Shown here piece after piece: positions 12,928-36,216 of a stretch of DNA of 44,372 nucleotides (position 1 is its first letter; the number at the start of each line of letters is the position of its first letter). The stretch is from positions 1-44,372 of the forward strand of contig QNDS01000001.1 in the NCBI GenBank assembly GCA_003644925.1. The letters run 5' to 3'. Source of the stretch: Candidatus Fermentibacterota bacterium (GTDB taxonomy: Bacteria; Fermentibacterota; Fermentibacteria; Fermentibacterales; JCC-6). Made by a program: the position numbers and the translations under genes. The notes beneath the pieces were generated by a model, which ran no database searches, had not been told where the DNA came from, and saw only the letters and a program-made list of their open reading frames with translations.

Positions 12928-14721
12928 CTGCCTGCCCAGATATATCAGAAGCCCATGGAGGTCAGTCGGTCTTATTCCCGGTATTCTCTCCGCTCCAGCC
13001 AGCGTTTCAGGTCTTTCCCTTTCCAGGACTTCCCTTGCCTCCCAGCATATCTCATCTATCTCCATGTAAGAGCCAATTTCTCTGAGGTTGATACTGCCTA
13101 GGTTTCTGTTGGATTCGTGCCTTCTGAGGTTTCTCTCTATATAGCCTCTGTATTTTTCGTCCAGAAGTACTGATAGAAGGACTTTCTGATCCCGCTCGAC
13201 TAGAGATTCCGCCAGGGCACCAACAGCTTCAACGGTTACACCGGGTCTTCTACACCACTTGGACAGTCTCATCCCGCCTGCCGTCTTGCTTTCGAGTACA
13301 CTCCAGATGAGTTCGGCTTCTTTCAGATTAGCTGACAGGAGGTCCCTTTTTTCTTCAGACAGTATCCCAAATCTTTTTCCCGAAAGGTAAAGCCGTCTGT
13401 CTGCATTGTCCTGTCTCAAATGAAGTCTGTTCTCGGCTCTGGATGAAAACATTCTGTACGGCTCATCCGCTCCCTTGCTTACAATATCGTCTATCATTAC
13501 CCCTATATATGAATTCATTCGCGATAGCTTCAGCGGCTCTTGGTTCTTTGAGGTTCTGGCGGCGTTGGCTCCTGCAACTAATCCAAGTCCGGCAGCTTCT
13601 TCGTATCCGGAAGTTCCGCATATCTGCCCGGCCGCGAACACATTTTCCGTTTTTCTCAACCTCAGTGTATCGGCAATTTCAGAGAAGTGAAAATAAGAAT
13701 ACTCAACGGCATATCCGTAATCAGTTATTTCAGCACCTTCAAAACCCCTGAGCGATCTCACCATTTTTATCTGCGCTTCCCTTGGAAGGCTGGTTGAAAG
13801 TCCGTTCAGGTAGAAATCTCTCGACTTGTATCCCATCGGTTCAACGTATATCCTGTGTCTCTGTCTATCAGGAAATTTTACAACCTTATCCTCGTAACTC
13901 GGACAGTACCTTGGTCCTGTTCCTTCTATCCTTCCCTCCATCAGAGGAGAAAGGTGAAGATAGTCCCTTGCGATGTTCATTGTATTTATATCGGTGTGCG
14001 TTATGTAGCACACCTCTTGATCCCTTTCCTGCAGGCCTTTTCCGAAACTGAAAGTAAAGTCTGTATCTTCTGACCGCTGTACTTCGAGTTCTGCGGTATT
14101 CACAGAACTTCTTACGATTCTCGCGGGAGTACCCGTCTTAAAACGTTCCACGTGAAACATTCTTTTCACCAGGTCTCTTTCCAGCGCATCTGCAGAGATA
14201 TCTCCTATTCTCCCCCCTTTCCAGCGTTCATCTCCTCTGAAAAGCCTGCCCCGGAGGAATGTCCCTGCAGCAAGTACCACTGTTTTTCCCTTAACTCTCC
14301 CGCTTCTTCTGCACTTGACTCCTGAAACTCTTTCTGTGTCGCCGCTGAGACCTGTTACTTCGTCCTCTACAACTGCAATCCCGCTGTTTTCTATGTATAG
14401 CTGCTGTGCCCTTGCGTACTCCGCAGCATCCGACTGAACTCTCGGACCCCACACAGCAGGCCCCTTTCTTCTGTTCAGCATCCGAAAATGCAGCGATGTA
14501 GCATCCGCCGAGCGGGCCATTGATCCATCAAGTGCGTCGATTTCGCGGACGATAGTCCCCTTGGCGATTCCTCCTATTGCTGGATTGCACGACATTTCAC
14601 CGATCCGGTTTGCCTTCGCTGATATCAGAACGACCGTGCAGCCCGTTCTTCGTGCTGCGAGCGCTGCTTCTATTCCGGCATGACCCCCGCCGACTACAAT
14701 CACATCCCATGTGTCGATCAT
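12916..14721 (-). CDS. mnmG: tRNA uridine 5-carboxymethylaminomethyl modification enzyme MnmG (GidA)
   Basis: WDVIVVGGGHAGIEAA FAD motif, and full-length colinear GidA blocks. ATG 14721 abuts the mnmE stop. The track start at 14733 is also possible. Confidence 0.95.
   Translation of the reverse strand: MIDTWDVIVVGGGHAGIEAALAARRTGCTVVLISAKANRIGEMSCNPAIGGIAKGTIVREIDALDGSMARSADATSLHFRMLNRRKGPAVWGPRVQSDAAEYARAQQLYIENSGIAVVEDEVTGLSGDTERVSGVKCRRSGRVKGKTVVLAAGTFLRGRLFRGDERWKGGRIGDISADALERDLVKRMFHVERFKTGTPARIVRSSVNTAELEVQRSEDTDFTFSFGKGLQERDQEVCYITHTDINTMNIARDYLHLSPLMEGRIEGTGPRYCPSYEDKVVKFPDRQRHRIYVEPMGYKSRDFYLNGLSTSLPREAQIKMVRSLRGFEGAEITDYGYAVEYSYFHFSEIADTLRLRKTENVFAAGQICGTSGYEEAAGLGLVAGANAARTSKNQEPLKLSRMNSYIGVMIDDIVSKGADEPYRMFSSRAENRLHLRQDNADRRLYLSGKRFGILSEEKRDLLSANLKEAELIWSVLESKTAGGMRLSKWCRRPGVTVEAVGALAESLVERDQKVLLSVLLDEKYRGYIERNLRRHESNRNLGSINLREIGSYMEIDEICWEAREVLERERPETLAGAERIPGIRPTDLHGLLIYLGRQRST
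14144..14159. promoter_or_regulatory. parS-like ParB binding site (copy 2, inverted)
   Basis: cgttccacgtgaaaca is the exact reverse complement of the 16-mer at 12912-12927. It lies inside mnmG coding sequence. Confidence 0.55.
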
Positions 14722-15977
14722 TTTCCCACACACATCCCGGACAGTGCCCGCTCAACACTTAACTGTATGTTCTCTCCCCTGCTGAGAATTCGTCTTGTTT
14801 CGATCTCAGCTTCGCTCAGAAGTTCTGCCGCCAGTCCGTATTCCCCGGATGATATGAAATTGAATGACTCTTCTATGCTGCCTGATATCCTGTCGGCGAC
14901 TCCTGACAGAGACATACTCCCGGGGACTCTTGACAGCATCGTTTTCAGTTCCTCCAGTCCCTCACCCGAAATCGAGGATACGTTCAGGAGATCGGCTGTT
15001 TCCCTTCTGCCGTCCAGATCACTCTTAGCCGCGATTTCTATTATCTCTCCGGCTTTTTTTCTTACTTCGCCGGGAGGCGGTGTCTTCCCTCCAACTGACA
15101 TCCAGATAACCCTTTCCGTTCCATCAAGTCCGTCGATAACTGCTTCCGAGGCAGTTCTGTCCAATCCAAGGCCGTCCGTACCGGCAGTATCGCAGAGCTG
15201 CACTTTTCTACCGCTGACTTCAATAATACAGGTCGAGCCGTCGCGTGTGGTGCCCGGCTCCCCGGATACCAGAGCTCTGCCTTCGCCGCTCAGTAGATTG
15301 AAAAGTGTGGATTTTCCCGAATTCATCGGGCCCATAAGCATTACTCTGCCCCTTTTCTCTATGGATGCAGCTTCTCTTTTGAAAACTCCCGCTCTGCCAA
15401 TAAGCTCATCGTAAACTTTTCCGATTGCATCGTCATCCCCGTCCAGATGCGCTTCACCGAACTCAATAAAACCTTCAACAGCTTCTCTTGCGCTTTCTAT
15501 CCCGGAAAGGAGTTCCATACAGCTGTTTTCCGCTTCCCCATTGAGGGTTGTCTGCTCCCTCTCGGTATCCCATAGCGCTGCAAGTGCTATTATCTGAACA
15601 GCGCTCAGTCTTTCATTGCCGAATGCCCTTCGCGCGAACTCCCCCGGCCCGGCTCTTCTTGCCCCGTTCTTTATCAGAATTTCCATTATCGTTCTGATCG
15701 ATCGCGGTATACCGTGACAGATGATCTCGACCATCTCTTCTCCGGTGAAACTGCTTCCCCGGGGCCAGGAAACAGCGACAACCTCATCAACGGTTCTACC
15801 TTCCTGGAAAATCCTTCCGACCTTTCTTCGCATTCCCCTCAGTCGGTTCTTTTCCAGGGACATGATGTTTTCAAGAAGTTCAAAGGATCCGCTTCCGCTG
15901 ATCCTTATGACAGAAAGTGCGGATGTTCCCTCTGGCGTTGCAACGGCACAGATGATCTCCGGTGACATTGTATTCAC
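14718..15977 (-). CDS. mnmE: tRNA modification GTPase MnmE (TrmE)
   Basis: 419 aa. G1 GPMNSGKST, G2 GTTRD, G3 DTAG, and the C-terminal CVGK tetrapeptide characteristic of MnmE. Confidence 0.9.
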   Translation of the reverse strand: MNTMSPEIICAVATPEGTSALSVIRISGSGSFELLENIMSLEKNRLRGMRRKVGRIFQEGRTVDEVVAVSWPRGSSFTGEEMVEIICHGIPRSIRTIMEILIKNGARRAGPGEFARRAFGNERLSAVQIIALAALWDTEREQTTLNGEAENSCMELLSGIESAREAVEGFIEFGEAHLDGDDDAIGKVYDELIGRAGVFKREAASIEKRGRVMLMGPMNSGKSTLFNLLSGEGRALVSGEPGTTRDGSTCIIEVSGRKVQLCDTAGTDGLGLDRTASEAVIDGLDGTERVIWMSVGGKTPPPGEVRKKAGEIIEIAAKSDLDGRRETADLLNVSSISGEGLEELKTMLSRVPGSMSLSGVADRISGSIEESFNFISSGEYGLAAELLSEAEIETRRILSRGENIQLSVERALSGMCVGK

Positions 15978-16016
15978 ATCTTACTCTTTCATGCAGAACA
16001 TTTCACTGAGATGACT

Positions 16017-17606
16017 TCAACTCTGTCCGGCCTCGAGCTTTTTCTTGATAAGCTGCTGCTGCCATATTGTCAGGAGGCTGTTGCTGAACCAGTACATGGT
16101 CAGGCCTGCCGGAAACCTCATGAAAAGGAATGTCATGAATATCGGCATCATGTACATCATACCCTTCTGGTTCTGGTCGGTCATGGTCATCTTCTGTTGA
16201 AGGAACATCGCTATTCCCATAAGAAGAGCAAGTATGCCGACGCCATGAAGCCCCAGTATCGGAGTCTGGAATGGAATCAGTATTTCCGGTTTTGACAGAT
16301 CCTGAATCCAGAGCATGAAGGGTGCTCCCCGCAGCTGTACAGAATTGGCAAGAACACGGTACAGTGCAAAGAATACGGGCATCTGCATAATGAGCGGAAG
16401 GCACCCTCCAAGGGGATTGACACCCTCCTCCCGGTAAAGTTTCTGCATTGCGCTCTGCAGAGCCTTCGGGTCGCTCTTATGCTTCGCCTGCAGTTCTTTC
16501 ATTTTGGGCTGCACCTGTTTAAGCATTGCCATGGATTTGAAACTCTTAGTCGTAAGCGGCATAAGAACGAGTTTAAGCACTATTGCCAGCAGTATTATCT
16601 TGATACCCCAGTTGCTGACGAACGAAAGCACTGATGTGCAGAACCAGAAAAGCAGTCTTCCTATATCCCTTATTATCGGCCATCCGAAATCCACCAGTCT
16701 GCTCGTGTCCCTGCCCAGTGCTCTGAGTCTGCTGTAATCGAGTGGTCCTGCGTAGACGAATATCCGGTTATCCTGTAACCCTATGGACGGAGATTCTTCC
16801 TCCCCCGATGCGTAGAGGAATCCATACGCTCTATCGTAGGATTGCGGCATCATAATAACCGCGAAATACTGTGATCTCGCTGCAATCCACTCCACATTAC
16901 CGACTTGCGCGTCCTCGGTAATACTGTTCGAGCCTCGGCTTTTAACCTTCTCCGCGTTCCATTGAGCCTTGAAATATCTTGAAACATTTGAATTCATTTC
17001 GCTTACCGGAAGAATTCCGGCGTTCAGCGTTGTTATTTCAGTGAGCCCCTCGGTCTCATAAAGGAAGCCGTACTGCCCGGGAGTAAATGTATACTTTATC
17101 TCCGTTTCGCCTGACGGATCAATGAATACCAGCGTCTGCGGGATCTCATTGATAAGAATAGTGTCTTCCGAAAGTGTTTCATAAAAGGTGCTGTTCCGTG
17201 TCCAGCGGTTTCCGTTGAAGTTGATGCTTTCCCCACTTCCGGCACCCGGAATGTCTTCATACTGTGGTAATTTCCACCCTGTTACAGTTCCACCGATAGT
17301 TGAAATATCGGCTTCAACTAGTACATTATCTCCATCATATATGATAACCTTAATTACTCTTTCATCAGGTAATATTTCATCTATATCAGTATTATGTGTT
17401 TTATCAGAAGCTATTTCATCACTTTGTTTATCAACAGATACTGAGTCGTCGAGCACCGGCAGTTGTTCCTGCTGAACGTATTCAATCGGCTGCGGCGAAG
17501 TCTGTGAACTGTCCGATGTTCCCGATTTTCCCATGAACTGCCAACTGATAAACAGCACCGCTGCCATTAATGCAGCAGCAAAAAGTAGCCTCTTTTGATC
17601 ACTCAT
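16017..17606 (-). CDS. yidC: membrane protein insertase YidC
   Basis: 529 aa. N-terminal TM, periplasmic domain, and the C-terminal 60-kDa IMP core (LLAIVLKLVLMPLT..GCLPLIMQMPVFFALY). Confidence 0.9.
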   Translation of the reverse strand: MSDQKRLLFAAALMAAVLFISWQFMGKSGTSDSSQTSPQPIEYVQQEQLPVLDDSVSVDKQSDEIASDKTHNTDIDEILPDERVIKVIIYDGDNVLVEADISTIGGTVTGWKLPQYEDIPGAGSGESINFNGNRWTRNSTFYETLSEDTILINEIPQTLVFIDPSGETEIKYTFTPGQYGFLYETEGLTEITTLNAGILPVSEMNSNVSRYFKAQWNAEKVKSRGSNSITEDAQVGNVEWIAARSQYFAVIMMPQSYDRAYGFLYASGEEESPSIGLQDNRIFVYAGPLDYSRLRALGRDTSRLVDFGWPIIRDIGRLLFWFCTSVLSFVSNWGIKIILLAIVLKLVLMPLTTKSFKSMAMLKQVQPKMKELQAKHKSDPKALQSAMQKLYREEGVNPLGGCLPLIMQMPVFFALYRVLANSVQLRGAPFMLWIQDLSKPEILIPFQTPILGLHGVGILALLMGIAMFLQQKMTMTDQNQKGMMYMMPIFMTFLFMRFPAGLTMYWFSNSLLTIWQQQLIKKKLEAGQS

Positions 17607-17866
17607 TTACGGTTCTCCCATTTGTCCGGAACAGGGTCGTATCCGCCTTGTCTGAATGGATGACATCGGAGCAGGCGCAATGTCGCCAGTTTCAGTCCCC
17701 GGATGACTCCATACCTCTTTATAGCAGTTTCCGCATAAACACTGCAAGTCGGGTTGTATATGCAGCTCGATGGGAACGCCGGCGATATGAATTTCCTGTA
17801 TCCTTTGATTGTAGCTATTAGTAATGACGCTGTCGCTCGTTTTGTTCTGCAGCCTTTTTCACTCAT
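17603..17866 (-). CDS. yidD: membrane protein insertion efficiency factor YidD
   Basis: YRKFISP..C.Y.PTCSVYA..RCHPF..GGYDPVP signature. It overlaps the yidC start by 4 nt. Confidence 0.85.
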   Translation of the reverse strand: MSEKGCRTKRATASLLIATIKGYRKFISPAFPSSCIYNPTCSVYAETAIKRYGVIRGLKLATLRLLRCHPFRQGGYDPVPDKWENRK

Positions 17867-17878
17867 CTCGTTTTCTCT

Positions 17879-18355
17879 TCAGTGGGTATCGCTTTCTATG
17901 ACGGACATCATGTTCTCAAAATCAGCTTTTATGTCCGCCCATCTTGCATCACGTAGCTTTCCTGCCGGTAATATAACAATATCCGCTCCGACACTTTTAC
18001 CGCTCTGTGCAGCAAGGCCTTTAATCCTTCTTCTTATAAGGTTTCTTTTCACCGCATTTCCACTTTTTGCGGATAGTGAAAACCCCAGACGTATATTGCC
18101 CAGGGTATTCTTAATATATACAGCCCTGAATGATACACCCCTGAAAGCTTTACCTTTCCTGAAAACTCTTCTGAACTGGTAACCTTTTTTCAGGGTTCTC
18201 TCTATCTTTATCAGGGAATCAATTTCTTTCTTCCCTTTCTCCTTCTTGCGTTGATCGTTCTTCTTCCGCTCTTTGTTGACATTCTTTTCCGGAATCCATG
18301 TCTTCTTGCCTTTGAGAGGTTGCTTGGCTGAAAGGTTCTTTTCATTAATCATCAC
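17879..18355 (-). CDS. rnpA: RNase P protein component; start uncertain (see findings)
   Basis: Conserved core [15 protein letters not shown]...[14 protein letters not shown] (RNR motif). The only in-frame canonical starts are GTG 18355 and ATG 18352, upstream of the rpmH ATG. Otherwise an ATT/CTG/ATA start around 18223-18205 is needed. Confidence 0.8.
18211..18345 (-). CDS. rpmH: 50S ribosomal protein L34
   Basis: My own translation of the minus strand gives [44 protein letters not shown], a textbook L34 sequence of 44 aa. It is missing from the ORF track because it is short. Confidence 0.9.
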
Positions 18356-18510
18356 TCTTTCCTGAATCCCTGCCTTGACGACGGTGGGATTACTGCATCA
18401 GTTTCAACGGTCAGGTAAATATCTATCTCTGGAGTCAACGATTGTGAAAGTTAGCCAATATAATCATATATGTCAAGTATTTGAGTGTACTCATTTTGGA
18501 TACCGCAGGG

Positions 18511-18610
18511 TTTTCCACAGTATGTGTTCGCTTGAAACACTACTTTTCGTTAAGTTACTGAATTTCATTAAGTTACCGTATATACCAGTTGTTGATATCC
18601 CTGTTGATAA
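18511..18610. promoter_or_regulatory. DnaA-box-like cluster upstream of dnaA
   Basis: ttttccaca at 18511-18519 matches 8/9 of TTATCCACA. tgttgatat at 18590-18598 matches 7/9 of TGTGGATAA. tgttgataa at 18602-18610 matches 8/9. Confidence 0.45.
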
Positions 18611-18667
18611 ATATCGTTGTTTGCTACATGCTATCACTTTACGCTGTATTCATTGATTGGAACGCTT

Positions 18668-19543
18668 ATGGATAATTTCAATCCCACTGACCTATGGAAC
18701 ATGTGCCTTCTGGAGGCTGAAAGAAGACTTGAATCCACCGAATTTGAGGCATGGCTGAAGAATTCAACCTACGAAGACATCAATGGTACAAGACTTGTTA
18801 TCAGGTTCCGAAACTCATTTGTCGCGGGACATGCCAAAGACCGCTTCGGAAATATAATGGAAGAGATTATCCGAACTATTTCCCAAAGGAGCGAACTCGC
18901 TCTTCAGTTCATAGGAGATCCTGCCGAACCAGGCCCTTCCGCTACAGAAAAGCTTACCCTTAATAGAGAGCCCTCTTCTTCCAATTACAGTTTCCTTCGC
19001 TCTAATTATACTTTCGATCACTTCGTCGTAGGTCCCAGTAATCAGCTGGCCCACGCGGGAGCTCTTGCAGTCAGCCGGGATATCGGCTCTACAAATTATA
19101 ATCCTTTATTCATTTACGGAGGTGTTGGCCTTGGAAAGACTCATCTTATTCAGGCTATAGCACATCACCTCAGACAGGAAGGCTCGAAGAGAACGTTCAG
19201 ATATATTTCAACTGAGCTTCTTGTGGAAACTTTTATTAAGTGTGTACTGCAGAATGACTATGCTCTCTTCCGCAAGCTCTTTCATGGTATCGACTATTTT
19301 CTAATGGATGATATACAGTTCCTCAAAGGAAAGGTTGAAACACAGGAGGCTTTCTTTCATCGTTTCAACGAGCTCCATCAGCAGGGGAAACAAATCGTTC
19401 TCACATCCGACAGGCCCCCGCACGAGCTTCCCGATCTTCCCGAAAGGCTGATAAGCCGTTTTCAATCGGGGCTTGTCGCGGATATCAAACCTCCGGAATA
19501 TGAAACACGCCTGGCTATACTTCAACTTCTTGTAAGAGACTAA
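18668..19543 (+). CDS. dnaA: DnaA N-terminal fragment (domains I-III core), ends at in-frame TAA 19541-19543
   Basis: MDNFNPTDLWN..; Walker A GGVGLGKTH; Walker B LMDDIQF; TSDRPP; ..PPEYETRLAILQLLVRD*. The track start at 18617 is an upstream extension. Confidence 0.85.
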   Translation: MDNFNPTDLWNMCLLEAERRLESTEFEAWLKNSTYEDINGTRLVIRFRNSFVAGHAKDRFGNIMEEIIRTISQRSELALQFIGDPAEPGPSATEKLTLNREPSSSNYSFLRSNYTFDHFVVGPSNQLAHAGALAVSRDIGSTNYNPLFIYGGVGLGKTHLIQAIAHHLRQEGSKRTFRYISTELLVETFIKCVLQNDYALFRKLFHGIDYFLMDDIQFLKGKVETQEAFFHRFNELHQQGKQIVLTSDRPPHELPDLPERLISRFQSGLVADIKPPEYETRLAILQLLVRD

Positions 19544-19564
19544 GAGCTGGAGGTAAGCCTGGAT

Positions 19565-20011
19565 GTGCTTGACTTCATAGCATCTTCAATAAGAAAGAAT
19601 GTGAGACAGCTGTCCGGTGTGATCCACAGGCTCGCTGCAATGTCCAGGCTTACCGGGTGCAGGGTGGATATGGATCTTGCTCAGAAGGAAATCCGTTCTT
19701 CTCTTGGCACCATTACAAGAAGGTTGACAGCTGGTTCTATTACTTCCGTTGTTGCGGAAAGTTTTGATGTTCTGCCCAAGCAGCTCAAAGGATCTGATAG
19801 AAAGCATAACGTTCTTATACCAAGACAGGTGTCAATGTCACTTATTCGGGAACTTACTTCCTTATCTCTTATGGAGATAGGATCATTTTTCTCTGGAAGA
19901 CATCACTCCACTATCCTCAATTCAATAGACAGGATCAAGGAACTCAAAGAGAATGATCCTGAACTTGAAAGAAAGATAGAAGAAATACGGAGCAAACTTA
20001 TTTCAATCTGA
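19565..20011 (+). CDS. dnaA: DnaA C-terminal fragment (AAA+ lid with sensor II, plus DNA-binding domain IV), same frame as the upstream fragment
   Basis: LDFIASSIRKNVRQLSGVIHRL (sensor II) and RQVSMSLIRELTSLSLMEIGSFFSGRHHSTILNSIDRI (the DnaA signature). In-frame GTG 19565 sits 11 nt after GGAGG 19549-19553. Confidence 0.8.
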   Translation: MLDFIASSIRKNVRQLSGVIHRLAAMSRLTGCRVDMDLAQKEIRSSLGTITRRLTAGSITSVVAESFDVLPKQLKGSDRKHNVLIPRQVSMSLIRELTSLSLMEIGSFFSGRHHSTILNSIDRIKELKENDPELERKIEEIRSKLISI

Positions 20012-20239
20012 AAAACCCTTAAATTGTCTTTGGAAAGTTGTGTAAAACCATCTATTCCAGAGTGTAGAAAACCTTCTTCTGTTGAAAAGCCTTATTTCAC
20101 TATCACGTTTTCAACATTTCTTCAACAGGGACAATTAACTCCTGTCTTTACCGCATGTGACATGTCCACATATCCACATGTATAATAACTATCATTATTG
20201 TTCTAAAATTACTGTATTCATAAAGCTGGAGGATATCCC
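20012..20239. other. putative oriC segment (DnaA-box cluster plus AT-rich unwinding region) in the dnaA-dnaN spacer
   Basis: Tandem atgtccaca/atatccaca at 20162-20178. TGTNGAAAA-type 9-mers at 20039, 20063 and 20080 (+) and at 20108 and 20119 (-). AT-rich tract at about 20179-20228. Gene strands switch here. Confidence 0.6.
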
Positions 20240-21361
20240 ATGATTAAACTTCTTGTTAACCATTCCGACTTGCTAAAAGGTCTTAATTGTGTAGCAACTG
20301 CCCTCCCTACAAGAAGCAGTCTTCCTTACCTTACTAACGTTCTTCTTGAAACAGAAGGAGAAACCCTCAGGTTATCAGCAACCGATCTGGATACTACGGT
20401 CATTACAACAATTCCCGCGTCAATTACAACTTCAGGATCAATTACGCTTCCAGGTAAAAAGCTGCACGAAATAGTACGTGAACTGTCTGAAGAAGAAGTT
20501 CGTTTAAGCGGTACTGGCAATAGAATAACTATAAGCTGCGGAAACGGATCTTTCACGCTCAGCGGTAGCTCCAGCGAGCAATTTCCTTCCCTTCCTCAGA
20601 AAAGTGATGTTGAACCGGCATCGATTCCTGTAGATGTCTTCTCTGATGCAATAAGGAAAACGTCTTATGCGGTAGCAAGAGACGATTACAGGGCAACTCT
20701 GAATGGCGCACTTCTTGATATCGGTGAAAAAGGGTTCGAAATGGTTGCGACCGACGGCCACAGACTCAGCTGTATTACACTTGGAAGCATAACTGCCCCT
20801 GTTAAAATCCATGCTCTTGTCACTCAAAAAGCTCTGAACCTTTTCGCGAAATTAGCTTCAGAAGGAGACGTTCTTATAAGTTTCAAGGGTTCTCAGATTT
20901 CTTTTGAATTTGGTAACACGATGATTTTCAGCAGAACAATAGACGGAGAATACCCTCCGTACAAAAAAGTTATTCCGCAGGATAACGACTCTGTTCTCTC
21001 TACAGACAGAAGTGATCTGATATCAGTACTGCGGCGGGTCAAGACCATGGCAAACCCTACAACACATCAAATAAAGTTCTCACTTGAACCTGGCAAGGTT
21101 CTCGTTCATTCGGAGAGTGCTGACGCTGGAGATGCCCAGGAAGACCTTGCTGCTGAGTATGCGGGAAGCCCCTTCCAGATAGGTTTCAATGGAAACTTCC
21201 TCATGGAAATACTCCGAAACATGAATTGCTCCAGAATATCGATGATGATGAAAGACAGCAATACGGCGGTAGTGATAAAGGACGAGGAGGAATCAGATGG
21301 TTCCGATTCATACCTCGCTCTCATTATGCCCGTCAAACTGTCAAAGGTTGCTGAAGAATAG
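20240..21361 (+). CDS. dnaN: DNA polymerase III beta sliding clamp
   Basis: 373 aa, colinear with beta clamps (LPYLTNVLLE, LSATDLD, MVATDGHRL, LIMPVKL). SD GGAGG lies upstream. Confidence 0.95.
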   Translation: MIKLLVNHSDLLKGLNCVATALPTRSSLPYLTNVLLETEGETLRLSATDLDTTVITTIPASITTSGSITLPGKKLHEIVRELSEEEVRLSGTGNRITISCGNGSFTLSGSSSEQFPSLPQKSDVEPASIPVDVFSDAIRKTSYAVARDDYRATLNGALLDIGEKGFEMVATDGHRLSCITLGSITAPVKIHALVTQKALNLFAKLASEGDVLISFKGSQISFEFGNTMIFSRTIDGEYPPYKKVIPQDNDSVLSTDRSDLISVLRRVKTMANPTTHQIKFSLEPGKVLVHSESADAGDAQEDLAAEYAGSPFQIGFNGNFLMEILRNMNCSRISMMMKDSNTAVVIKDEEESDGSDSYLALIMPVKLSKVAEE

Positions 21362-21375
21362 TATCCGGTACCGCA

Positions 21376-21651
21376 GTGAAGAAAATTGACAGCCTTCTTC
21401 CAGGTGTACTGAGTAATTTCAGTCTGGATATATACCAGAAGAGAAACAGTGCTGTCAGTATGTGGAAAGATATCGTGGGAGACGAATTAGCAGCTTTAGC
21501 AAAGCCCGTGGGTTTTAACGGATCTGTGCTTCTGCTGAAAATCACTCATCCGGCGGCATCAATGGAGATTGTACTGAGAAAGAAGGAAATACTGCACAAA
21601 CTGAATTCATTGCGGGATGAGGAACTGTTCACCGATCTGAAAACAGTGTAG
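21376..21651 (+). CDS. DUF721 / DciA-like protein
   Basis: 91 aa with a GTG start. W..IVG..LA..A.P..F..G.L.L.V..PA....I pattern, and the classic position between dnaN and gyrB. Confidence 0.7.
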   Translation: MKKIDSLLPGVLSNFSLDIYQKRNSAVSMWKDIVGDELAALAKPVGFNGSVLLLKITHPAASMEIVLRKKEILHKLNSLRDEELFTDLKTV

Positions 21652-21659
21652 CGGGAAAG

Positions 21660-23600
21660 GTGGAAGGTAACAGTTTGACCGAGAACAATACAAACTATGA
21701 CGCGAACTCGATCAAAGTTCTAAAGGGGCTTGAACATGTCAGAAAAAGGCCGAGTATGTATATCGGCTCAACATCTCAGACAGGCCTTCACCACCTGGTC
21801 TGGGAGGTAGTGGATAACAGTATTGATGAGGCTCAATCAGGTTTCTGTACTTCAATAGAGGTGATCCTGCACTCTGACGGTTCGATCTCAGTTAACGACA
21901 ACGGACGCGGTATTCCGATAGAGATGCACGAAAGCGGCAAGACAGCGCTTGAAGTGGTTATGACGACCCTGCATGCAGGAGGGAAATTCGACAATACAGC
22001 GTACAAAACATCAGGAGGGCTTCACGGTGTCGGGGTAAGTGTTGTCAATGCCCTATCGTTATGGCTGTCAGTTGAGGTTCGTAAAGGCGGGAATGTCTAT
22101 CGACAGAGTTTCCGGCGCGGAGACCCGGAAGGACCGCAGGAGAATACAGGCAAAACTGATCTTACGGGAACGAGAATCAGATTCATGCCTGATTACGATG
22201 AGATCTTTGAAACATCCTTGCTCAACTTTGAAACACTGTCCGGCAGGCTTCGAGAGCTCGCGTACCTTAACAACGGATTGAAGCTTACTATTTCTGATGA
22301 GAGGCAAGGGTACGCGGATAGACGGGAAGAATACCGATTCGAAGGTGGTTTGAGTTCGTTTGTGTCGTATATAAATGAAGCCCACACCACGCTTCATGAT
22401 CCCGTAAGAATAAGCGGAGAATTCGAACTTGATGAAGATGGACTTATAATTATCGATGTGGCACTGCAATACAATAAAGCCTTCCAGGAGGACATTTTTT
22501 CTTTTGTGAATAACATCAATACAATTGATGGCGGTACACATCTATCTGGAATGAAATCGGCTCTTACAAGAACACTGAACGAATACGCTTCGGCTAACAA
22601 CCACTTCAACAGCAAAGATGATACTTTCTCCGGAAGTGATGTGAGAGAAGGCCTCGCAGCGGTAATCAGCGTCAAGATTCCCGATCCTCAGTTCGAGGGA
22701 CAGACGAAAACAAGGCTTGGAAACAGAAGTGTTCAGGGAGCTGTGCTTTCCCATGTCAGCCGAGGAATATCAACTTTCCTTGAGGAGAACCCCTCAATTG
22801 CAAGAAATATCATTCAGAAGTGTCTTCTTAATCACAGCTCCCGGCAGGCCGCAAAAAAAGCCAGGGAACTTACAAGAAGGAAATCCGCACTTGAAACAGC
22901 AGCTCTTCCTGGAAAACTGGCCGACTGCTCCGTGAACAACCCGGAGGAAGCAGAGCTTTTCATAGTAGAGGGAAATTCAGCCGGAGGTTCCGCAAAACAG
23001 GGCCGTAACAGACACTTCCAGGCTATACTTCCCTTAAGAGGAAAGATCATAAATGTAGAGAAAGCACACCTTGCAAAAGTTCTGAAGAACAACGAAATAA
23101 GGACCATCATCACTGCAGCGGGAACGGGTATCGAAGAAGATTTCGATATAAACAATCTCAGGTACCACAAAATAATAATCATGACAGATGCCGACGTTGA
23201 CGGATCTCATATAAGAACCCTGCTGCTTACGTTCTTTTACAGACATATGATTGAACTTATTGAAAAAGGATACGTCTACGTAGCGCAGCCGCCACTGTAC
23301 CTTCTGAAGAAGGGGAGTGTAAAGAGATACGCATATAATGAAGCAGAGAGAATAAAAATAGCAGAGGAGCTTGGTAATACCGGCATTACAATGCAGAGAT
23401 ACAAAGGACTGGGTGAAATGAACCCGGATCAGCTATGGGCAACAACGATGGACCCCGAAAGACGGGTTCTTCTGAAGATAAGGCTTGAGAACGTAATGGA
23501 GGCCAGTCATATTTTCTCCGTTCTCATGGGAGATGATGTGGAGCCGAGGCGTGAGTTCATACAGCAGCATGCAGCTGATGTAATGAATCTTGATGTATAG
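21660..23600 (+). CDS. gyrB: DNA gyrase subunit B
   Basis: 646 aa. YDANSIKVLKGLEHVRKRPSMYIG, GGLHGVG, EGNSAGGSAKQGR, and PLRGKIINVE in the TOPRIM domain. Confidence 0.95.
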   Translation: MEGNSLTENNTNYDANSIKVLKGLEHVRKRPSMYIGSTSQTGLHHLVWEVVDNSIDEAQSGFCTSIEVILHSDGSISVNDNGRGIPIEMHESGKTALEVVMTTLHAGGKFDNTAYKTSGGLHGVGVSVVNALSLWLSVEVRKGGNVYRQSFRRGDPEGPQENTGKTDLTGTRIRFMPDYDEIFETSLLNFETLSGRLRELAYLNNGLKLTISDERQGYADRREEYRFEGGLSSFVSYINEAHTTLHDPVRISGEFELDEDGLIIIDVALQYNKAFQEDIFSFVNNINTIDGGTHLSGMKSALTRTLNEYASANNHFNSKDDTFSGSDVREGLAAVISVKIPDPQFEGQTKTRLGNRSVQGAVLSHVSRGISTFLEENPSIARNIIQKCLLNHSSRQAAKKARELTRRKSALETAALPGKLADCSVNNPEEAELFIVEGNSAGGSAKQGRNRHFQAILPLRGKIINVEKAHLAKVLKNNEIRTIITAAGTGIEEDFDINNLRYHKIIIMTDADVDGSHIRTLLLTFFYRHMIELIEKGYVYVAQPPLYLLKKGSVKRYAYNEAERIKIAEELGNTGITMQRYKGLGEMNPDQLWATTMDPERRVLLKIRLENVMEASHIFSVLMGDDVEPRREFIQQHAADVMNLDV

Positions 23601-23659
23601 TGTCCGTCAGTTGGCAGGACAGGGGAACAACCTATGAATAAACCAGAAGGAACCTCAGT

Positions 23660-26146
23660 ATGACCGAAAAGGTTGAAGAAGATCAGTTGAACAGCAGTCA
23701 TATCGTCAAACCGGATATTATTGATATAGAAGAGGAAATGAAACGCTCCTATATGGATTATTCCATGAGCGTAATAGTTTCAAGAGCATTACCGGACGTA
23801 AGAGACGGGCTGAAACCGGTACACAGAAGAATTCTGTATTCGATGTACGAACAGAAACTGACATACAAACGTGCATACAGGAAATCAGCTACAGTGGTTG
23901 GTGATGTTCTGGGTAAATATCATCCTCACGGGGACTCCGCAGTTTACGACGCAATGGTTAGAATGGCGCAGGATTTCTCACTGCTGCACCCTCTTGTGGA
24001 TGGACAGGGTAACTTCGGATCAATAGATGGCGATCCGGCAGCAGCATATAGATACACTGAAGCAAGAATGTCCAGGATAGGTGCGGAAATGCTTCGTGAT
24101 ATCGACAAAGAAACCGTCGAGCTGGTTCCCAATTTCGACGATCGCTTGAAAGAACCGTCCATACTTCCATCCGGAATACCGAATCTTCTTGTTAACGGCT
24201 CGTCCGGTATTGCGGTCGGAATGGCTACAAACATACCCCCGCATAACCTTCGAGAGATAGTCAATGCATGCTGCAGCATCATTGACAACCCGGATCTAAC
24301 CGAAGAAGAGCTTTTCAGCATAGTAAAGGGTCCGGATTTCCCGACCGGCGGCATAATTATGGGTATGAGGGGCATCAGGGATTGCTACAGGACCGGAAAG
24401 GGGTCTATCCGTGTCCGCGGCAGAATCAGTATCGAAGAAGCCCCAAGGGGCAGGGAAGCCATAATCATTACAGAGATACCGTACCAGGTGAACAAGACCA
24501 GGCTCATAGAGAGTATCGCCGACCTTGTAAAGCAGAAAAAAATTGTATCCATTGCAGATCTCCGCGATGAATCCGACAGAGAGGGCATGCGCATAGTCAT
24601 TATTCTGAAGAATGACGCTCTTTCCGAAGTGGTTCTAAACCAGCTTTACAAGCATACCACCCTTTCAAAGACATTCGGTGCAAACTGCCTTGCGCTCTGC
24701 AGCGGAAGACCGCTGAGGCTTACGCTGCGCGATTTTCTGGACCATTACATTGATCACAGACATGATGTTATTGAGAGGCGGGTTAAGTTCGATCTTGCGA
24801 AGGCGGAAGCGAGAACCCATATCGTGGAAGGCCTGCTGAAGGCGCAGGATTCAATAGAGGAGGTTATCAGGGTCATAAGGGAATCCGGCAATACCGATGA
24901 AGCCAGATCCGCGCTGGTTGAAGGATTCGGATTCTCCGAGATCCAGGCCCAGGCGATACTTGATATGCGCCTGAGAAGACTTACGGGTTTAGAACGGGAT
25001 GAGCTGGAGAAAGAGTATAATGAACTCGTGTTGCTACTTGCAGCGCTTAGAGAAATAGCGGCAAGCAGGTTGAAGAGGATGAGGATCGTTGCCGACGAAC
25101 TCACGGCTGTCGCCGAAGAGTACGGTTGCTCCCGAAAAACGGAAATCCTGCCTTACGCACCGGGCGAAATTGACATAGAAGACCTGATCCCGGACGATGA
25201 GATGGTAATCACCGTTTCGCGCGAGGGTTACATCAAAAGACTTTCATCGGATACGTACAAAATTCAGCACAGGGGCGGCAAGGGTATTACCGGGGCAAAA
25301 ACCCGGGAGGAAGATGCCCTGGAACAGATATTCATTTCTTCAAATCACAGTTATATCCTGTTTTTCACCAGCCAGGGAAGATGCTACTGGCTCAAAGTGT
25401 ACAGGATACCTGAAGCTGGCCGCATAAGTAAAGGAAAAGCTATAGTTAACCTTCTGGACCTTGAGCCGGAGGAAAGACCGGTTGCCAACGTCTGCGTGAA
25501 AGAGTTCGATGAGGATCGGTTCATCGTTATGGCAACCAGCAACGGCGTCGTGAAAAAAACAGCTCTTTCCAGCTACAGTCACCCGAGGAAAAATGGAATA
25601 TGGGCCATCAAACTTGATGACAACGCTGAATTGGTCTCTGCCTCTCTTACAGACGGCAGCAGCAGGATCCTTCTTGCCCTTGCAGGCGGTAAAGCCAACA
25701 GGTTTTCCGAGAAGGAAATCCGTGCCACCGGCAGGCATACAAGGGGAGTGATGGGCATCAGGGTGGGCAGGAGCGACAGGCTGGTCGGCATGGTTGCCAT
25801 GGAGAGCCCGGGAAGCCTGCTTACAGTGACGGAGGGCGGATACGGCAAAAGGACGCCATCTGAAGAGTACAGATTAACCCACAGGGGAAGCGGCGGCGTT
25901 ATAAACATTCGCAATATAGATAGAAATGGACCGGTCATTTCAATAATGCCGGTCTCCGAAGAAGATGAGTTGATCCTTATCTCCGCACTTGGAATGATCA
26001 TAAGACTTCCAGTCGAGCAGATAAGGGAGATGGGACGGAGCACGATGGGCGTAAGGCTGATGAACCTGCCGGAAGAAGACAGGGTGGTGGACGCAGCTAT
26101 TGTGCATCCCGGTGATGATAACACGGATCAGGGAGAATCGGAATAG
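23660..26146 (+). CDS. gyrA: DNA gyrase subunit A
   Basis: 828 aa. [50 protein letters not shown] (catalytic Tyr), and a C-terminal beta-pinwheel with an acidic tail. Confidence 0.95.
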
Positions 26147-26364: not shown

Positions 26365-29300
26365 ATGAAAGACAGAGAAGTAGAGAAAGTACTTCAAAAC
26401 CTGAGAAGTATGAGTACCCCTCCTCCTATCATGGAAGATTCAGCGGTGAAGTGGTTCATGGCCCTGACCAATCTCCCGTCTGAGGCTACAGTTGTTGCAG
26501 TTCAGGAGTTTTTTCATCTCAGCTGGGTATGGAATCAGATAGGTCCACGCACAGGACTTGTGTTCAGCGATCTTATGTCGTTGTTATACAAAGTTTTTTA
26601 CATTCTTGCGGAGAACCCTGAAGACCTGTTCCTTGCCGGTATACTTATTAAGAACGGCATAAAATGGCCGGAACGATTCGGCTTCATGCTTGATCGGACG
26701 CGGATAGGAGGAGGAAATATCATAAGGGCCCTTCAGCGTGCGGCTGATGTCATGATCGATGCCCCCCCTGCCGTACACGAGACACTTGTTGACTTTGCTG
26801 TAGAGACCGGATGGTATCTTCTTGCGGAAGAGGACCTTCCTGTATGGAGATCGGTAGGGAGGAACGGGGAATCTCTATTCAGAAAGATGAGAGGATTCTC
26901 CATCAAGATGGAAGCTATCCGAACTCTTTCTGGTTTTCTTGGTAAGCTGGAAGAATCGAAAGAACTCACCGCGCTGCTTGATGATACGATGAAGGAGGTC
27001 ATCACCGATGTAGTCGGTAATCTTGCCGAACCGGAGATGAATGAAGTTCTTCACAGTGTTTCTCAGCGGGCTGTAGAAGCCCTGAGAAGAAGAGCCGAGA
27101 GAAATATTAACTTTGATATCATAGATCTGCCGGTTACCAACAGCGGAATTTCTGCCGATTACGGGAGAGCCATAGCTGAAATAATTCTGTTCGCCGGAGC
27201 GGGCAGAGCCAGCTATAACTGTTTCCGGGAAGCGTATTCCATTGCAATAGAGACGAATAACAATAACCTGATTGTTATGATATCCAGACTTGCGCGCGAA
27301 AGAAGCGGATACGACTATCTGGAGAACAACAAAACCGAGTTCTACATTGATTTTATTCCGATAATACTGCAGTTTCTAAAAGGCAAGACCAGCTCTGCAG
27401 AGATCAGATGGATCGTTGATTCAGCAGGACGTCTTATGGACTCCATTCTTGGCCAGGAAGACCCGGGTGCCGCAATAGAAGCCATGAACAGCTACCTGGA
27501 GAATATAGAGACCAGCAACGACAAATTTCTACCGACACTGGTACTCCTCCTCCGATCAACAAGACACGTAAAGTTTCATGATCTGATTTTGAAAAGCGAA
27601 GTATTCGCAGGAATACTTGATCTATTGAACGCTAATAGAAGAAAAAGACTGCTGGAAGGGGAGCAGACAGAATGGCTTACGCCTCTGGCGGAGGAACCGG
27701 TAGAGTCGGCGCGGCTTATTTCGCGCACTCTTAAAAACATAAATAGCGTAGATCTCCGCGGAAGATTCCTTGATAAGGTTATCGCTCCCCTGTTGCAGGG
27801 AACGGATACTGAAGATCCCATTTTCGCAGAACTAATCTCAACAGCTGTTTCAAGCTATAACAGAGAAATGAGCATAGATCAGCTCCGGAAAGAGGAAACA
27901 TCCATCCTTGGCAAGCTATTCCGCGCAGAGGATAGAAGCAAGGCGCTCAAGACAACAATGGAGAACCTGCTAAGGATACCGGGTATAGAGGAAAAGAAAG
28001 CCAACGACCTTATATATTCCTCAAGAGCGCTCTGTGAGATCCTTTCCCAGCAGGCTGTCTGGATTGAAAAGACAGGACACAGGATCTTCAGCAAATTCCT
28101 CTCCTACGGCCTTCGGTCGTTCGTAAACACACTTGTGGAACACCCTGATATTGCCGAGCGGATAACAGGAAGTTTCATGAGACACCTGACCGACACCATT
28201 ATTCCTTCAAAGGAGACAGAGGACAGCGATGTTGCTCTTTGGCAGCTGAAGACAGCAGCACTGTTCTTCGGGAAGACCATCCCCCTTACGACCGAGCTTA
28301 TTGCAGACTCACCGGATACTCTCATCCCCTACTTCACCGAGATCTCTGAACTCTCGGTTGCTTCCAAGTACGGGGAACCTGCAGGAGCCGCATTCCTTTC
28401 ATGGATGTCTCACAGACTGGAATCAGAACTCATCAGTGAGTTCGCCAGAAAACTGAGCGAGGACACCCCGTTCGCGGAATTCAATGAGAAATTCAATGCC
28501 GCAGATCTTATGAAAAAATGGCGGAGCATTAGAGACGCATCCTCCGAAATTATGAAGGAGATGGTGGGGTCACTTCAGATGCTTTCCAGCAATCCTCTTT
28601 ATCGCCAGATACTTCTCCGCGAGGGGCGCAAACTCATAGAGGGTTTTATCGAGAACGGCTGCAGTGAAATCATTACCGGATACTCGGGAATAACCTCCCG
28701 CTCTGAGATAGAGAAACTCAGAAAAATAACAGAGGGTAGCGATATCATCGATATTTTCAGAGTTATGGAAAATGAAGGGGAAGATGGAGAAGCTGATGTG
28801 ATAACCGGGGAAGTTAAAAACTACTTCCTTGAGAGACCCTGCCCGCTGGGAGAGAACGCGTGCCGGTATTGGCGAAAGAAGGTTTTTTCTACGCTTGAAA
28901 ACGTTCTTCTTGACATAATAGTGCTTTGCACTGATAAGAGAAGCCTTGAAATCATGGAACAAATGATCGATGACTTCGTGAAGATAATAGGGTATCTGGG
29001 GACTGATGATGACTTTAAACCTGATATAATTCTTACAGCTCTGGAAAAATCACTCTCAGGATCCGAAGGCGGCAGAAATATGACTGTTGATATCGCCGCG
29101 AAGAATCTTGATAAGAATGTGTATAAGCTGATGTGGCTCAGGAAAGCCACAAGAAAAGCTGCGGAATCAGTTGCCGGTTACGTTCCCGGAAGAAAGATAT
29201 CCATCAGACTGTTCGACAGAATCTCAAGAGAAAAGTCCGCTCAGCAGCAGATACTTTTCATGAAGAATTTTGGAAGGATATTCTCTTCTCTGGAAAGCGA

Positions 29301-29796
29301 GATAATGAGGAGGAAAACTACAGAGATAAAATCGGTCAGGTCAGTTCTGGAGCATATCTGGATATTCAACCCGGATGCGCCAAAACCGGCTTCTGCAGTT
29401 GACACCGCAAGGGATGCTGTGGAAACGGTTTCGCAGTTCTTCCTTGAGATCGGAACCCGGACAGGTGCGGTCAGCGCACCAGAAGCCGGCGCGATAAGCC
29501 TCGGTATGCGCCGCAAGTATAGAGATAACGCGAACACTGTTGCAATTCTTATTAAATGGACACAGGATTCATCACGCTCTGACCTCCTCGCCCTTGTTGA
29601 AGCGCATCAGCCGTTACTTGAAGCGGTCAGCAGGGACAGCGAGCTTATAAACATGATAGACAATCTCTGGAGCATAGGTAAGGCGAGGCTGTATATCAGA
29701 TCCCTTGCCGACAGGCCTGACAAACTGAAGAAGCGGCTGGTCCGTTTCTCAGGTGCAGATGCGGCTGGAAACAATGACGGCATCCAATATATCTAA
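26365..29796 (+). CDS. large (1143 aa) protein of unknown function; no recognisable catalytic motif, signal peptide or TM segment
   Basis: A long uninterrupted ORF with coding-like, helix-favouring composition. The frame stays open a further 81 codons upstream, back to 26122, with no ATG/GTG/TTG. Confidence 0.7.
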   Translation: MKDREVEKVLQNLRSMSTPPPIMEDSAVKWFMALTNLPSEATVVAVQEFFHLSWVWNQIGPRTGLVFSDLMSLLYKVFYILAENPEDLFLAGILIKNGIKWPERFGFMLDRTRIGGGNIIRALQRAADVMIDAPPAVHETLVDFAVETGWYLLAEEDLPVWRSVGRNGESLFRKMRGFSIKMEAIRTLSGFLGKLEESKELTALLDDTMKEVITDVVGNLAEPEMNEVLHSVSQRAVEALRRRAERNINFDIIDLPVTNSGISADYGRAIAEIILFAGAGRASYNCFREAYSIAIETNNNNLIVMISRLARERSGYDYLENNKTEFYIDFIPIILQFLKGKTSSAEIRWIVDSAGRLMDSILGQEDPGAAIEAMNSYLENIETSNDKFLPTLVLLLRSTRHVKFHDLILKSEVFAGILDLLNANRRKRLLEGEQTEWLTPLAEEPVESARLISRTLKNINSVDLRGRFLDKVIAPLLQGTDTEDPIFAELISTAVSSYNREMSIDQLRKEETSILGKLFRAEDRSKALKTTMENLLRIPGIEEKKANDLIYSSRALCEILSQQAVWIEKTGHRIFSKFLSYGLRSFVNTLVEHPDIAERITGSFMRHLTDTIIPSKETEDSDVALWQLKTAALFFGKTIPLTTELIADSPDTLIPYFTEISELSVASKYGEPAGAAFLSWMSHRLESELISEFARKLSEDTPFAEFNEKFNAADLMKKWRSIRDASSEIMKEMVGSLQMLSSNPLYRQILLREGRKLIEGFIENGCSEIITGYSGITSRSEIEKLRKITEGSDIIDIFRVMENEGEDGEADVITGEVKNYFLERPCPLGENACRYWRKKVFSTLENVLLDIIVLCTDKRSLEIMEQMIDDFVKIIGYLGTDDDFKPDIILTALEKSLSGSEGGRNMTVDIAAKNLDKNVYKLMWLRKATRKAAESVAGYVPGRKISIRLFDRISREKSAQQQILFMKNFGRIFSSLESEIMRRKTTEIKSVRSVLEHIWIFNPDAPKPASAVDTARDAVETVSQFFLEIGTRTGAVSAPEAGAISLGMRRKYRDNANTVAILIKWTQDSSRSDLLALVEAHQPLLEAVSRDSELINMIDNLWSIGKARLYIRSLADRPDKLKKRLVRFSGADAAGNNDGIQYI

Positions 29797-30790
29797 TCCG
29801 GAAGAGCGATCCCTTGCAAACATAGCGCTTGTTTCCACAGGGGGAACAATAGAAATGGTGTCGGATCAAGGACGAATTGATATCGCCAAACAGCACAATC
29901 CCCTTCCGGTACAGGAAAATGTAATCCCACCCTTTATCAGCGTTGAGCATACCAGATTCTGCAGCCTCCCAAGTCCGGCGATTTCACCCGGAGTGATGGC
30001 AGATCTCTGCCTCGTACTGGAGAATTTGGCCGCCTGCGGAAAGTACCACGGGATCGTAGTTACGCATGGAACTGACACATTGGAAGAAAGCGCTTTCCTT
30101 GCCGATATATATCTGCGGAGCACAATTCCCGTCGTTTTTACGGCTGCCATGAGAAGCCAGTCGGAAATGGGAGTTGATGGCCCGAGAAACGTAAAGGGAG
30201 CATTGCTGACCGCCTCGAATAATGAAGTTCATAAGTTGGGAGTTACCGTAGTTCTTAACGACGAGATCCATTCCGCCAGCAGGGTGACAAAAACGTATAC
30301 AAGTAACGTAAGTAGCTTTAAGTCACCGGGGTATGGCCCTCTTGGATTTGTGGACCAGGACAGGATACTGCTCCAGCGAAAGCCCATGAGAAGAATAAAA
30401 CTACCTCGGGGCAAACTGAAACTGGACGAGCGGGTTGGATTGATCAGAACAGCAGCGGGGCTTGGAGCCAGAGAAATAAGATATTGCGTTGACAGAGGAG
30501 ACAGAGCGCTGGTCGTTGAAGCTCTTGGAAGGGGAAATGTGCCGCCTGAGGCTGCAGAAGCTATCCAGTACGCGGTTGAGAAGGAAACAATAGTCTGCAT
30601 TACCAGCAGGTGCTACATCGGAAGGGTGCTTGGAGTATATAACTACCCCGGGGGTGGAGCGGACCTTGAGAGAAAAGGAGCCATTCTGGCGGGAGATATG
30701 CAGGGACACAAACTCAGACTTTTCCTGATGGCATCATTGGGCATAGGTCTGAACGCTGAGAATATACGGAAATTACTGGAAAGGTTTTGA
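29774..30790 (+). CDS. ansA: L-asparaginase, type I family
   Basis: ALVSTGGTIEM and VVTHGTDTLEESAF are the two asparaginase signature Thr motifs. The start is uncertain (GTG 29753, ATG 29759 or ATG 29774). It overlaps the end of the large ORF. Confidence 0.85.
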   Translation: MTASNISNPEERSLANIALVSTGGTIEMVSDQGRIDIAKQHNPLPVQENVIPPFISVEHTRFCSLPSPAISPGVMADLCLVLENLAACGKYHGIVVTHGTDTLEESAFLADIYLRSTIPVVFTAAMRSQSEMGVDGPRNVKGALLTASNNEVHKLGVTVVLNDEIHSASRVTKTYTSNVSSFKSPGYGPLGFVDQDRILLQRKPMRRIKLPRGKLKLDERVGLIRTAAGLGAREIRYCVDRGDRALVVEALGRGNVPPEAAEAIQYAVEKETIVCITSRCYIGRVLGVYNYPGGGADLERKGAILAGDMQGHKLRLFLMASLGIGLNAENIRKLLERF

Positions 30791-30868
30791 TTGAGATGGA
30801 GTTTGTTGACAAACAAGAGCCCTTCAGCTTAGTTTACCGCATGCGGCACGGGAACAGGCGGGAGTAAA

Positions 30869-31213
30869 TTGCCTGAAAAGGGTTTCACGGCGACGTTTAT
30901 CTCCAATACTGGGAAAACGCTCCACCAGTTCAATGTAAGCGGCCCGAAGCTGTACATTCTAAGGGTTCTAATGGGATTTGCCGTATTGCTGATAACGGCG
31001 TCTTCAATAATTGTAGCATACGGGCTGCTCAGCGCGGGAGAAACAGATAAACTGAGAAGTGAGATACTGCAGCTGCAGGATTCCCTTGCCGTACGAAGGA
31101 ATATTGAAGTGAGGCTGGAGAGCCTGGAATCGGAGATTCAGCAGCTGATTGAATACAGAGAGAAGCTGGAGAATATTCTAGTAGAAATACCAATGCCTGA
31201 GGACTCACTGTAA
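30869..31213 (+). CDS. single-pass membrane coiled-coil protein (resembles the N-terminal anchor of M23-type peptidases but has no catalytic domain)
   Basis: 114 aa with a TTG start. One TM segment (LRVLMGFAVLLITASSIIVAYGLL) followed by a heptad-like LQLQDSL..LESLESEIQQLIEYREKLENIL. Confidence 0.5.
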   Translation: MPEKGFTATFISNTGKTLHQFNVSGPKLYILRVLMGFAVLLITASSIIVAYGLLSAGETDKLRSEILQLQDSLAVRRNIEVRLESLESEIQQLIEYREKLENILVEIPMPEDSL

Positions 31214-31242
31214 TAAAAAAGGAAAAGAGGTAACCGAAGAAT

Positions 31243-31623
31243 ATGCCTAAAAAGGAATTGCCTTCCACGATAGATTCCATTCTCGGTTCCGGGAGTCTAT
31301 GCAAAGGAGCTATCAGAGTAGATGGCGGTCTTAGAATCGATGGTACTGTGGACGGAGAAGTTGTTGTGACCGGAACACTGACCGTCGGCCGTGCCGGTGT
31401 AATAACCGGAGACGTGACCGTAAGCCAGGCTGTTATCGGCGGCAGGATACAGGGAACGGTCAGAGCGGAGCATCAGCTGGAACTGCAGAGTGGTTCGAGC
31501 CTTGAGGGAGATATTTTCACACGATCTCTCATTATCGAGGACGGAGTTTTCTTCGAGGGATCATGCAAGATGAACCGTGTCAACGATTCTGAGCTTAATG
31601 TGGAAAATGTTGAAAAGATCTGA
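31243..31623 (+). CDS. bactofilin (polymer-forming cytoskeletal protein, DUF583)
   Basis: Repetitive beta-helix pattern: IRVDGGLRIDGTVDGEVVVTGTLTVGRAGVITGDVTVSQAVIGGRIQGTV..LEGDI. Confidence 0.85.
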   Translation: MPKKELPSTIDSILGSGSLCKGAIRVDGGLRIDGTVDGEVVVTGTLTVGRAGVITGDVTVSQAVIGGRIQGTVRAEHQLELQSGSSLEGDIFTRSLIIEDGVFFEGSCKMNRVNDSELNVENVEKI

Positions 31624-31624
31624 A

Positions 31625-31707
31625 ATTTGTGGATAACTCCGTAACTGGTTGATATATAATTAAATACAAAATCACTTAAAGTAGTTTCATAAGTAATATC
31701 CACAAAT
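31625..31707. repeat. 11-bp perfect inverted repeat carrying DnaA-box consensus in each arm, separated by a 61-nt AT-rich spacer
   Basis: atttgtggata (31625-31635) and tatccacaaat (31697-31707). The left arm contains TGTGGATAA (31628-31636), a 9/9 match to the DnaA-box consensus. Confidence 0.7.
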
Positions 31708-31803
31708 GACTTTGTTATGGAGGTATAGCACGCATCGGGGGGAGCAGGCCCGGCGCAGAAGCTCTATGCTGTATCTATTATCCATCTGAAAGGCAGGTAA
31801 TAA

Positions 31804-32127
31804 ATGACAAGGCTGGGAGAACTTCACAGGGAAGAGAAAGAAGCTCAGCTGGAGTTGGAAAACGCTGAGAAGGAAGCTCAGAAAATAAGAGTGTCCATAC
31901 CGGACCTGCTGGACTCCCAGAACGAAGAAAGAGATGAGCAGCTGAACGAAATTACACAGATTGCCGAAGCAGAAGTAGATAAGAAAATAATCGACCTTTC
32001 GAACAGTCTTCGGGGTGAAACGGAGAAGAAGCTCAAGCTGCTTACCGGAGAAGAAGCTATACTTGAGAAAGCCGCAACAGCAAGTCTCAGGGAGTATATC
32101 ATGAGTAGCGGGAGCTCCGGCAGATGA
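31804..32127 (+). CDS. V/A-type ATPase small coiled-coil stalk subunit (H/G-like)
   Basis: 107 aa, charged coiled coil (EEKEAQLELENAEKEAQKI). It is first in the operon, and its stop overlaps the subunit I ATG (ATGA). Confidence 0.55.
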   Translation: MTRLGELHREEKEAQLELENAEKEAQKIRVSIPDLLDSQNEERDEQLNEITQIAEAEVDKKIIDLSNSLRGETEKKLKLLTGEEAILEKAATASLREYIMSSGSSGR

Positions 32128-34148: not shown

Positions 34149-34184
34149 AAACACCGCTCGCAGGCGGAGTGAAGGGAGATATAA

Positions 34185-34634: not shown

Positions 34635-34641
34635 CGGGAAA

Positions 34642-35229: not shown

Positions 35230-35232
35230 CTC

Positions 35233-36207: not shown

Positions 36208-36216
36208 GAGGCTCTA

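Follow-up and report, generated by a model that had tools for sequence, protein, structure and literature searches.

An in-frame stop codon in dnaA of a Candidatus Fermentibacterota contig is found in one assembly only and is probably a base error

The dnaA gene of the window, by which we mean the whole 44,372-nucleotide stretch of a Candidatus Fermentibacterota contig (QNDS01000001.1) analyzed here, is cut by one in-frame TAA. The T at position 19541 that creates this stop is private to one assembly. The lineage as such does not have the split, and the locus is an ordinary dnaA; we estimate at about 0.6 the probability that the stop is a technical base error in this single contig. The evidence points to a one-base blemish in a MAG, and the two annotated products, RKZ11249.1 and RKZ11250.1, are to be read as one DnaA. 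The case calls for caution: when a single in-frame stop turns up in an essential gene of a MAG, other assemblies of the same population should be compared first. Were the stop a genuine and working one, the result would be a split form of the central initiator of bacterial replication, which would be novel. It would mean that the AAA+ lid can assemble in trans, and the gene would represent a natural bacterial initiator in two pieces, the first of its kind, at the moment of its origin.

A single stop codon interrupts an otherwise complete dnaA gene

Read through, dnaA extends from 18668 to 20011 on the plus strand and comprises 447 codons. The sequence at 19538-19546 reads gac TAA gag, and the TAA (19541-19543, plus strand, codon 292) is in frame with both dnaA open reading frames (ORFs). 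Codons 1 to 291 (18668-19540, plus strand) encode domain I, the linker, the AAA+ core with Walker A and B, sensor I and the box VII arginine, and the first lid helix; their product is an exact match to RKZ11249.1 (DRQ25_00095, 291 aa). Codons 293 to 447 and the TGA stop (19544-20011, plus strand) supply the remainder of the lid, including sensor II, and the DNA-binding domain IV. The product of the downstream ORF matches RKZ11250.1 exactly (DRQ25_00100, 148 aa), the annotated start of which is an in-frame GTG (19565-19567, plus strand) that corresponds to Val300 of the intact protein. Both products are annotated as hypothetical proteins in the Candidatus Fermentibacteria bacterium MAG.

The Pfam domains DnaA_N (PF11638) and Bac_DnaA (PF00308, ATPase) are found on the first piece, and Bac_DnaA_C (PF08299, HTH) on the second. 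The read-through product of 447 codons matches the DnaA profile TIGR00362 from position 1 to 437 of 437 with a score of 443.5 bits, the curated cut-off being 343.9 bits, and it aligns without gaps to Bacillus subtilis DnaA (PDB 8btg), codon 292 being opposite a Glu residue. These two alignments uphold the statement in a preliminary description of this DNA that the gene contains no indel relative to intact DnaA proteins. In alignments with homologous proteins, the motifs that precede the stop are Walker A (GGVGLGKTH, 151-159), Walker B (LMDDIQ, 212-217) and box VII (RLISRF, R264), and sensor II (NVRQLSG, R313) and domain IV follow it, which is the distribution of motifs over the two pieces given in that description. 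All four domains and the nucleotide-binding motifs of DnaA are collinear in the read-through sequence. The single uninterrupted frame expected of DnaA is broken in the window contig and present on a contig of the same strain, described below. AlphaFold modeling of the intact allele (mean pLDDT of 85) puts the stop in a loop, residues 292-297, that connects the first two helices of the lid (278-291 and 298-307), in agreement with the earlier view that the TAA cuts the gene within the AAA+ lid.

On its own, the N-terminal piece would amount to an AAA+ module of the DnaA type devoid of domain IV, reminiscent of Hda and other truncated DnaA paralogues. However, it comes from the orthologous dnaA locus and not from a paralogue, it keeps domain I, and it lacks sensor II. 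Compared with the Hda profile TIGR03420, the read-through protein scored 102.7 bits, below the cut-off of 194.8 bits.

The stop is absent from other assemblies of the strain and from its relatives

Two contigs of the ENA assembly ERZ27227323, a MEGAHIT assembly with MEGAHIT-style contig names, represent the same strain and correspond to positions 14640-25399 (contig L096) and 28360-44372 (contig L099) of the window. Over the 26,773 bases that they cover together, there are 8 mismatches and no gaps. L096 carries an intact dnaA of 447 aa with GAA (Glu) at codon 292; the single difference from the dnaA of the window is base 19541, G instead of T, and the other 1,343 bases are the same. A Logan contig from run SRR6478915 (L012; 1,125 bases) is 100% identical to positions 18417-19540 (1,124 bases), and its last base, at position 19541, is a G. 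An index of 153 billion gene positions contains the 291-aa product only on the window contig and on L012. In the latter, the gene is cut by the end of the contig and has no stop, and the 291-aa product with a stop is therefore limited to the window contig. Exact look-ups of the 148-aa C-terminal product, in versions starting with M or with V, retrieved no record.

Position 19541 is a G in all other assemblies. Codon 292 is GAA in L006 (JGI 3300033155; approximately 99.6% identity over the contig and 99.3% over dnaA), in L010 and L011 (94.6% identity over dnaA) and in L007 to L009 (92.9%), and it is GAG in L001 to L005 (83%). The ancestral codon is GAA, for Glu292. A Glu residue occupies this position in 19/19 of the closest proteins and in 93 of 115 full-length homologues, and in none of these 115 did we find a stop or a gap at positions 280-310. 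Among named relatives, Candidatus Aegiribacteria and Fermentibacteria MAGs are the closest, and every Fermentibacteria species representative in GTDB yielded a full-length match. The protein cluster defined at 90% identity has 29 members; among the 15 listed, those from outside the window are full length or nearly so, and the only short members are the two pieces of the window contig. No split dnaA was found among about 130 relatives or same-strain contigs.

An alignment with dnaA of the closest genomes had been proposed in the preliminary description, and it reveals a sense codon in every same-strain assembly and relative. The TAA had also been proposed to derive by one base change from GAA, CAA or AAA. 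The single change and the GAA codon are borne out, whereas CAA and AAA are not.

At the end of the 3,532-base L006 contig, positions 3516-3532 diverge from window positions 20953-20962 into a run of A, which looks like a low-quality contig end.

The gene is under strong constraint and lies at a likely origin

The dN/dS ratio in the clade is 0.02 to 0.09 for both halves of dnaA, indicating that the whole protein is under strong constraint. No further lesion was found in dnaA, which differs by a single base from the intact L096 allele; both halves are thus as free of additional damage as they had first appeared. No other gene of the window is broken, and a Pfam check of neighboring ORF pairs that might be split genes found none. 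A decaying pseudogene was rejected in view of the lack of additional lesions and of dN/dS values without relaxed selection.

From dnaA onward, the plus strand carries dnaA, dnaN, a DciA-family gene, gyrB and gyrA, and the minus strand beside dnaA carries yidC, yidD, rnpA and rpmH. The usual downstream neighbor of dnaA, dnaN, is intact (20240-21361, plus strand, 373 aa). The rpmH-dnaA intergenic region (18356-18667) is a candidate origin or promoter region, with DnaA-box-like 9-mers at 18511, 18602 and 18667, and the dnaA-dnaN intergenic region (20012-20239) has a DnaA-box-like site at 20170-20178. The cumulative GC skew reaches its minimum at about 19 to 21 kb in the window. The chromosomal-origin context of DnaA is therefore present, with dnaN adjoining, a GC-skew switch and nearby DnaA-box-like sites, and judging from the sequence the dnaA locus would be a textbook-type, working-looking origin region. 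Taken together, the likeness to known DnaA comprises the full-length collinear protein, the rpmH-rnpA / dnaA-dnaN-dciA-gyrB-gyrA gene order and the GC-skew minimum. The difference lies in codon 292, TAA instead of GAA, in the window contig only.

Potential restart signals downstream of the stop predate it

Translational reinitiation after nonsense codons is known from the classical lacI restart fragments. The dnaA sequence of the window resembles this situation in that the stop is followed by a Shine-Dalgarno (SD)-like motif and an in-frame GTG within 24 nt. The motif, GGAGG (19549-19553, plus strand), is separated from the GTG at 19565 by 11 nt, as previously read in the sequence. One could thus imagine a working two-piece initiator, in which translation would stop at codon 291 and restart at GTG 19565 by means of GGAGG, and the resulting DnaA(1-291) and DnaA(300-447) would reassemble across the lid. 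We regard such an arrangement as very improbable, although several of its elements are plausible. A GGAG-like motif is found upstream of about half of the window genes, in some cases with similar spacing (e.g., at 34642 and 38360), and the GGAGG-N11-GTG sequence could therefore act as a start. Its occurrence by chance would be rare, as only 0.5% of the window codons are followed by a complete GGAGG with an in-frame start within ten codons, a value that rises to 5.8% for any 4-base SD core. Furthermore, in the model the break is in a loop at the surface, where one lid helix passes into the next, and a protein is most tolerant of a split at places of this kind.

However, both signals preexist in intact alleles, where they are coding sequence: GGAGG spans the codons cTG GAG Gta (L-E-V), and the GTG is part of D-V-L. 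GGAGG is present in the intact alleles L096, L006 and L010, and it is replaced by GGAAG in L007 to L009 and by TGAAG in L001 to L005. Similarly, the GTG is present in the intact alleles L096 and L006, whereas L010, L011 and L001 to L005 have GTA in its place. Being present in intact alleles and variable in relatives, the two signals are by-products of coding that were not selected for restart. In this respect they differ from lacI-type reinitiation, and the SD and GTG of the downstream piece, previously taken to make restart mechanistically plausible, are no evidence of design. In addition, the split occurs in no relative and not in the same strain, restart at the GTG would, according to the model, remove residues 292-299 and part of the helix 298-307, and no second allele or compensating change was seen. 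The coincidence of GGAGG and GTG is the sole point in favor of a tolerated split; it predates the T and was picked post hoc. That the T is real and tolerated, with two DnaA chains (1-291 and 300-447) made from the preexisting GGAGG-N11-GTG and rejoined via the lid, is extremely doubtful. We are not aware of any description of a DnaA that is split in nature, and a limited search of the literature yielded none; as for internal stops of dnaA in MAGs, the search returned nothing useful.

Decoding of the TAA as an amino acid by programmed readthrough, reassignment or an ochre suppressor is scarcely conceivable. The one point in its favor is that the frame continues perfectly past the stop. Among bacterial stop codons, TAA is the least leaky, and we know of no bacterial TAA reassignment. 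The relatives do not have the stop but GAA or GAG, and scans of the window for tRNA genes and Rfam elements came out empty, revealing no suppressor tRNA and no recoding element. TAA ends 7 of the 32 long ORFs of the window, one of them being the dnaA piece. As it terminates the six others, the code appears to be standard, and reassignment of this stop codon was rejected on that ground and because no other gene has an in-frame stop. A functional two-piece DnaA or readthrough is thus without support.

A base error is the most probable explanation of the stop

If the stop is a technical error, the true codon 292 would be GAA, and the gene would be an ordinary chromosomal dnaA at oriC, encoding a single polypeptide, between rpmH/rnpA and dnaN. 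The T at 19541 would be a G-to-T miscall, or it would result from a wrong path taken during assembly where coverage was thin and strains were mixed; the erroneous base would then have been carried over to the MAG consensus. A parallel is offered by the spurious split genes that single-base consensus errors create in draft genomes and MAGs, as here one substitution, private to one assembly, affects an essential gene that shows no decay. They are more commonly caused by homopolymer frameshifts, in contrast with the present substitution, for which we infer a technical rather than a biological cause.

Several observations favor an error. Two further assemblies of this population lack the T, and dnaA is essential, strongly constrained and located at a working-looking origin. 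The 291-aa product with a stop occurs on no other contig, and no other gene of the window is broken. A G-to-T change also argues for an error, as it is a typical signature of oxidative (8-oxoG) damage to libraries. Finally, the assembly graph is disrupted at this very site in another data set. In the Logan graph of SRR6478915, contig L012 ends at 19541 and contig L097 starts at 19556, leaving a 14-base hole at the disputed site, which indicates that coverage is thin or inconsistent there in at least one read set. With a simple G/T bubble, breaks would be expected at 19540 and 19542, unlike the actual contig ends; low coverage or extra variation at 19542-19555 is therefore needed to explain them.

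The main alternative is a real, very recent GAA-to-TAA nonsense mutation, carried by a subpopulation, relic DNA or non-growing cells, on which the assembler happened. The allele would be defective or crippled, unfixed and without evolved function. We consider this possible but clearly less probable than an error, although such a variant would leave an identical signature in the assemblies. SNP mosaics among the three assemblies at the strain level indicate that several strains or variants coexist; the hole in the Logan graph could likewise reflect heterogeneity, and the absence of further decay fits extreme recency. In the region compared with outgroups, the derived alleles private to the window are E292*, GyrB T72S and GyrA N571S, all three non-synonymous, and the remaining differences are synonymous. 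Private changes that are all non-synonymous form a pattern unfiltered by selection, which fits errors and young unpurged mutations alike; we count it on both sides. The two gyrase changes are located at 21873 (GyrB codon 72) and 25371 (GyrA codon 571) and are private relative to both the same-strain assembly and the outgroups.

A recent nonsense allele is nevertheless difficult to reconcile with the purifying selection on dnaA and with a working-looking origin that has DnaA-box-like sites, since a null allele should not reach a frequency sufficient to win the assembly under such conditions. Moreover, the allele is in no other assembly. A base error has points against it as well. The comparison assemblies have a few additional differences from the window, and they need not derive from the same reads. 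For a random error, a complete GGAGG with a start, found after 0.5% of codons, is an unlikely coincidence, less so if a 4-base core (5.8%) is considered. The preliminary description had left four possibilities side by side; an error or a very recent nonsense mutation is favored by our analysis, and the evidence speaks against the other two, a genuine two-piece initiator and programmed readthrough.

Other features of the window

Three DnaA-box-like 9-mers are clustered within 106 bp at 31599-31704, between a bactofilin gene and a V-type ATPase operon and 12 kb from dnaA. The cluster includes the only perfect TTATCCACA of the window (31628-31636, minus strand). The cluster could bind or titrate DnaA, or it could have arisen by chance.

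The longest rnpA ORF (17879-18355, minus strand, 158 aa) crosses, in another frame, the rpmH gene for L34 (18211-18345, minus strand, 44 aa). In relatives, the gene callers give either the long rnpA or rpmH, and the start of rnpA is probably mis-set in several records.

A large ORF of 1,143 aa (26365-29796) is located downstream of gyrA. In relatives, no Pfam hit is recorded for it, and among close relatives its length ranges from 1,127 to 1,191 aa. Further along, positions 32124-40398 harbor a complete V/A-type ATPase operon (subunits I, c, E, C/AC39, F, A, B and D), which is identical or nearly so in ERZ27227323 and JGI 3300033142.
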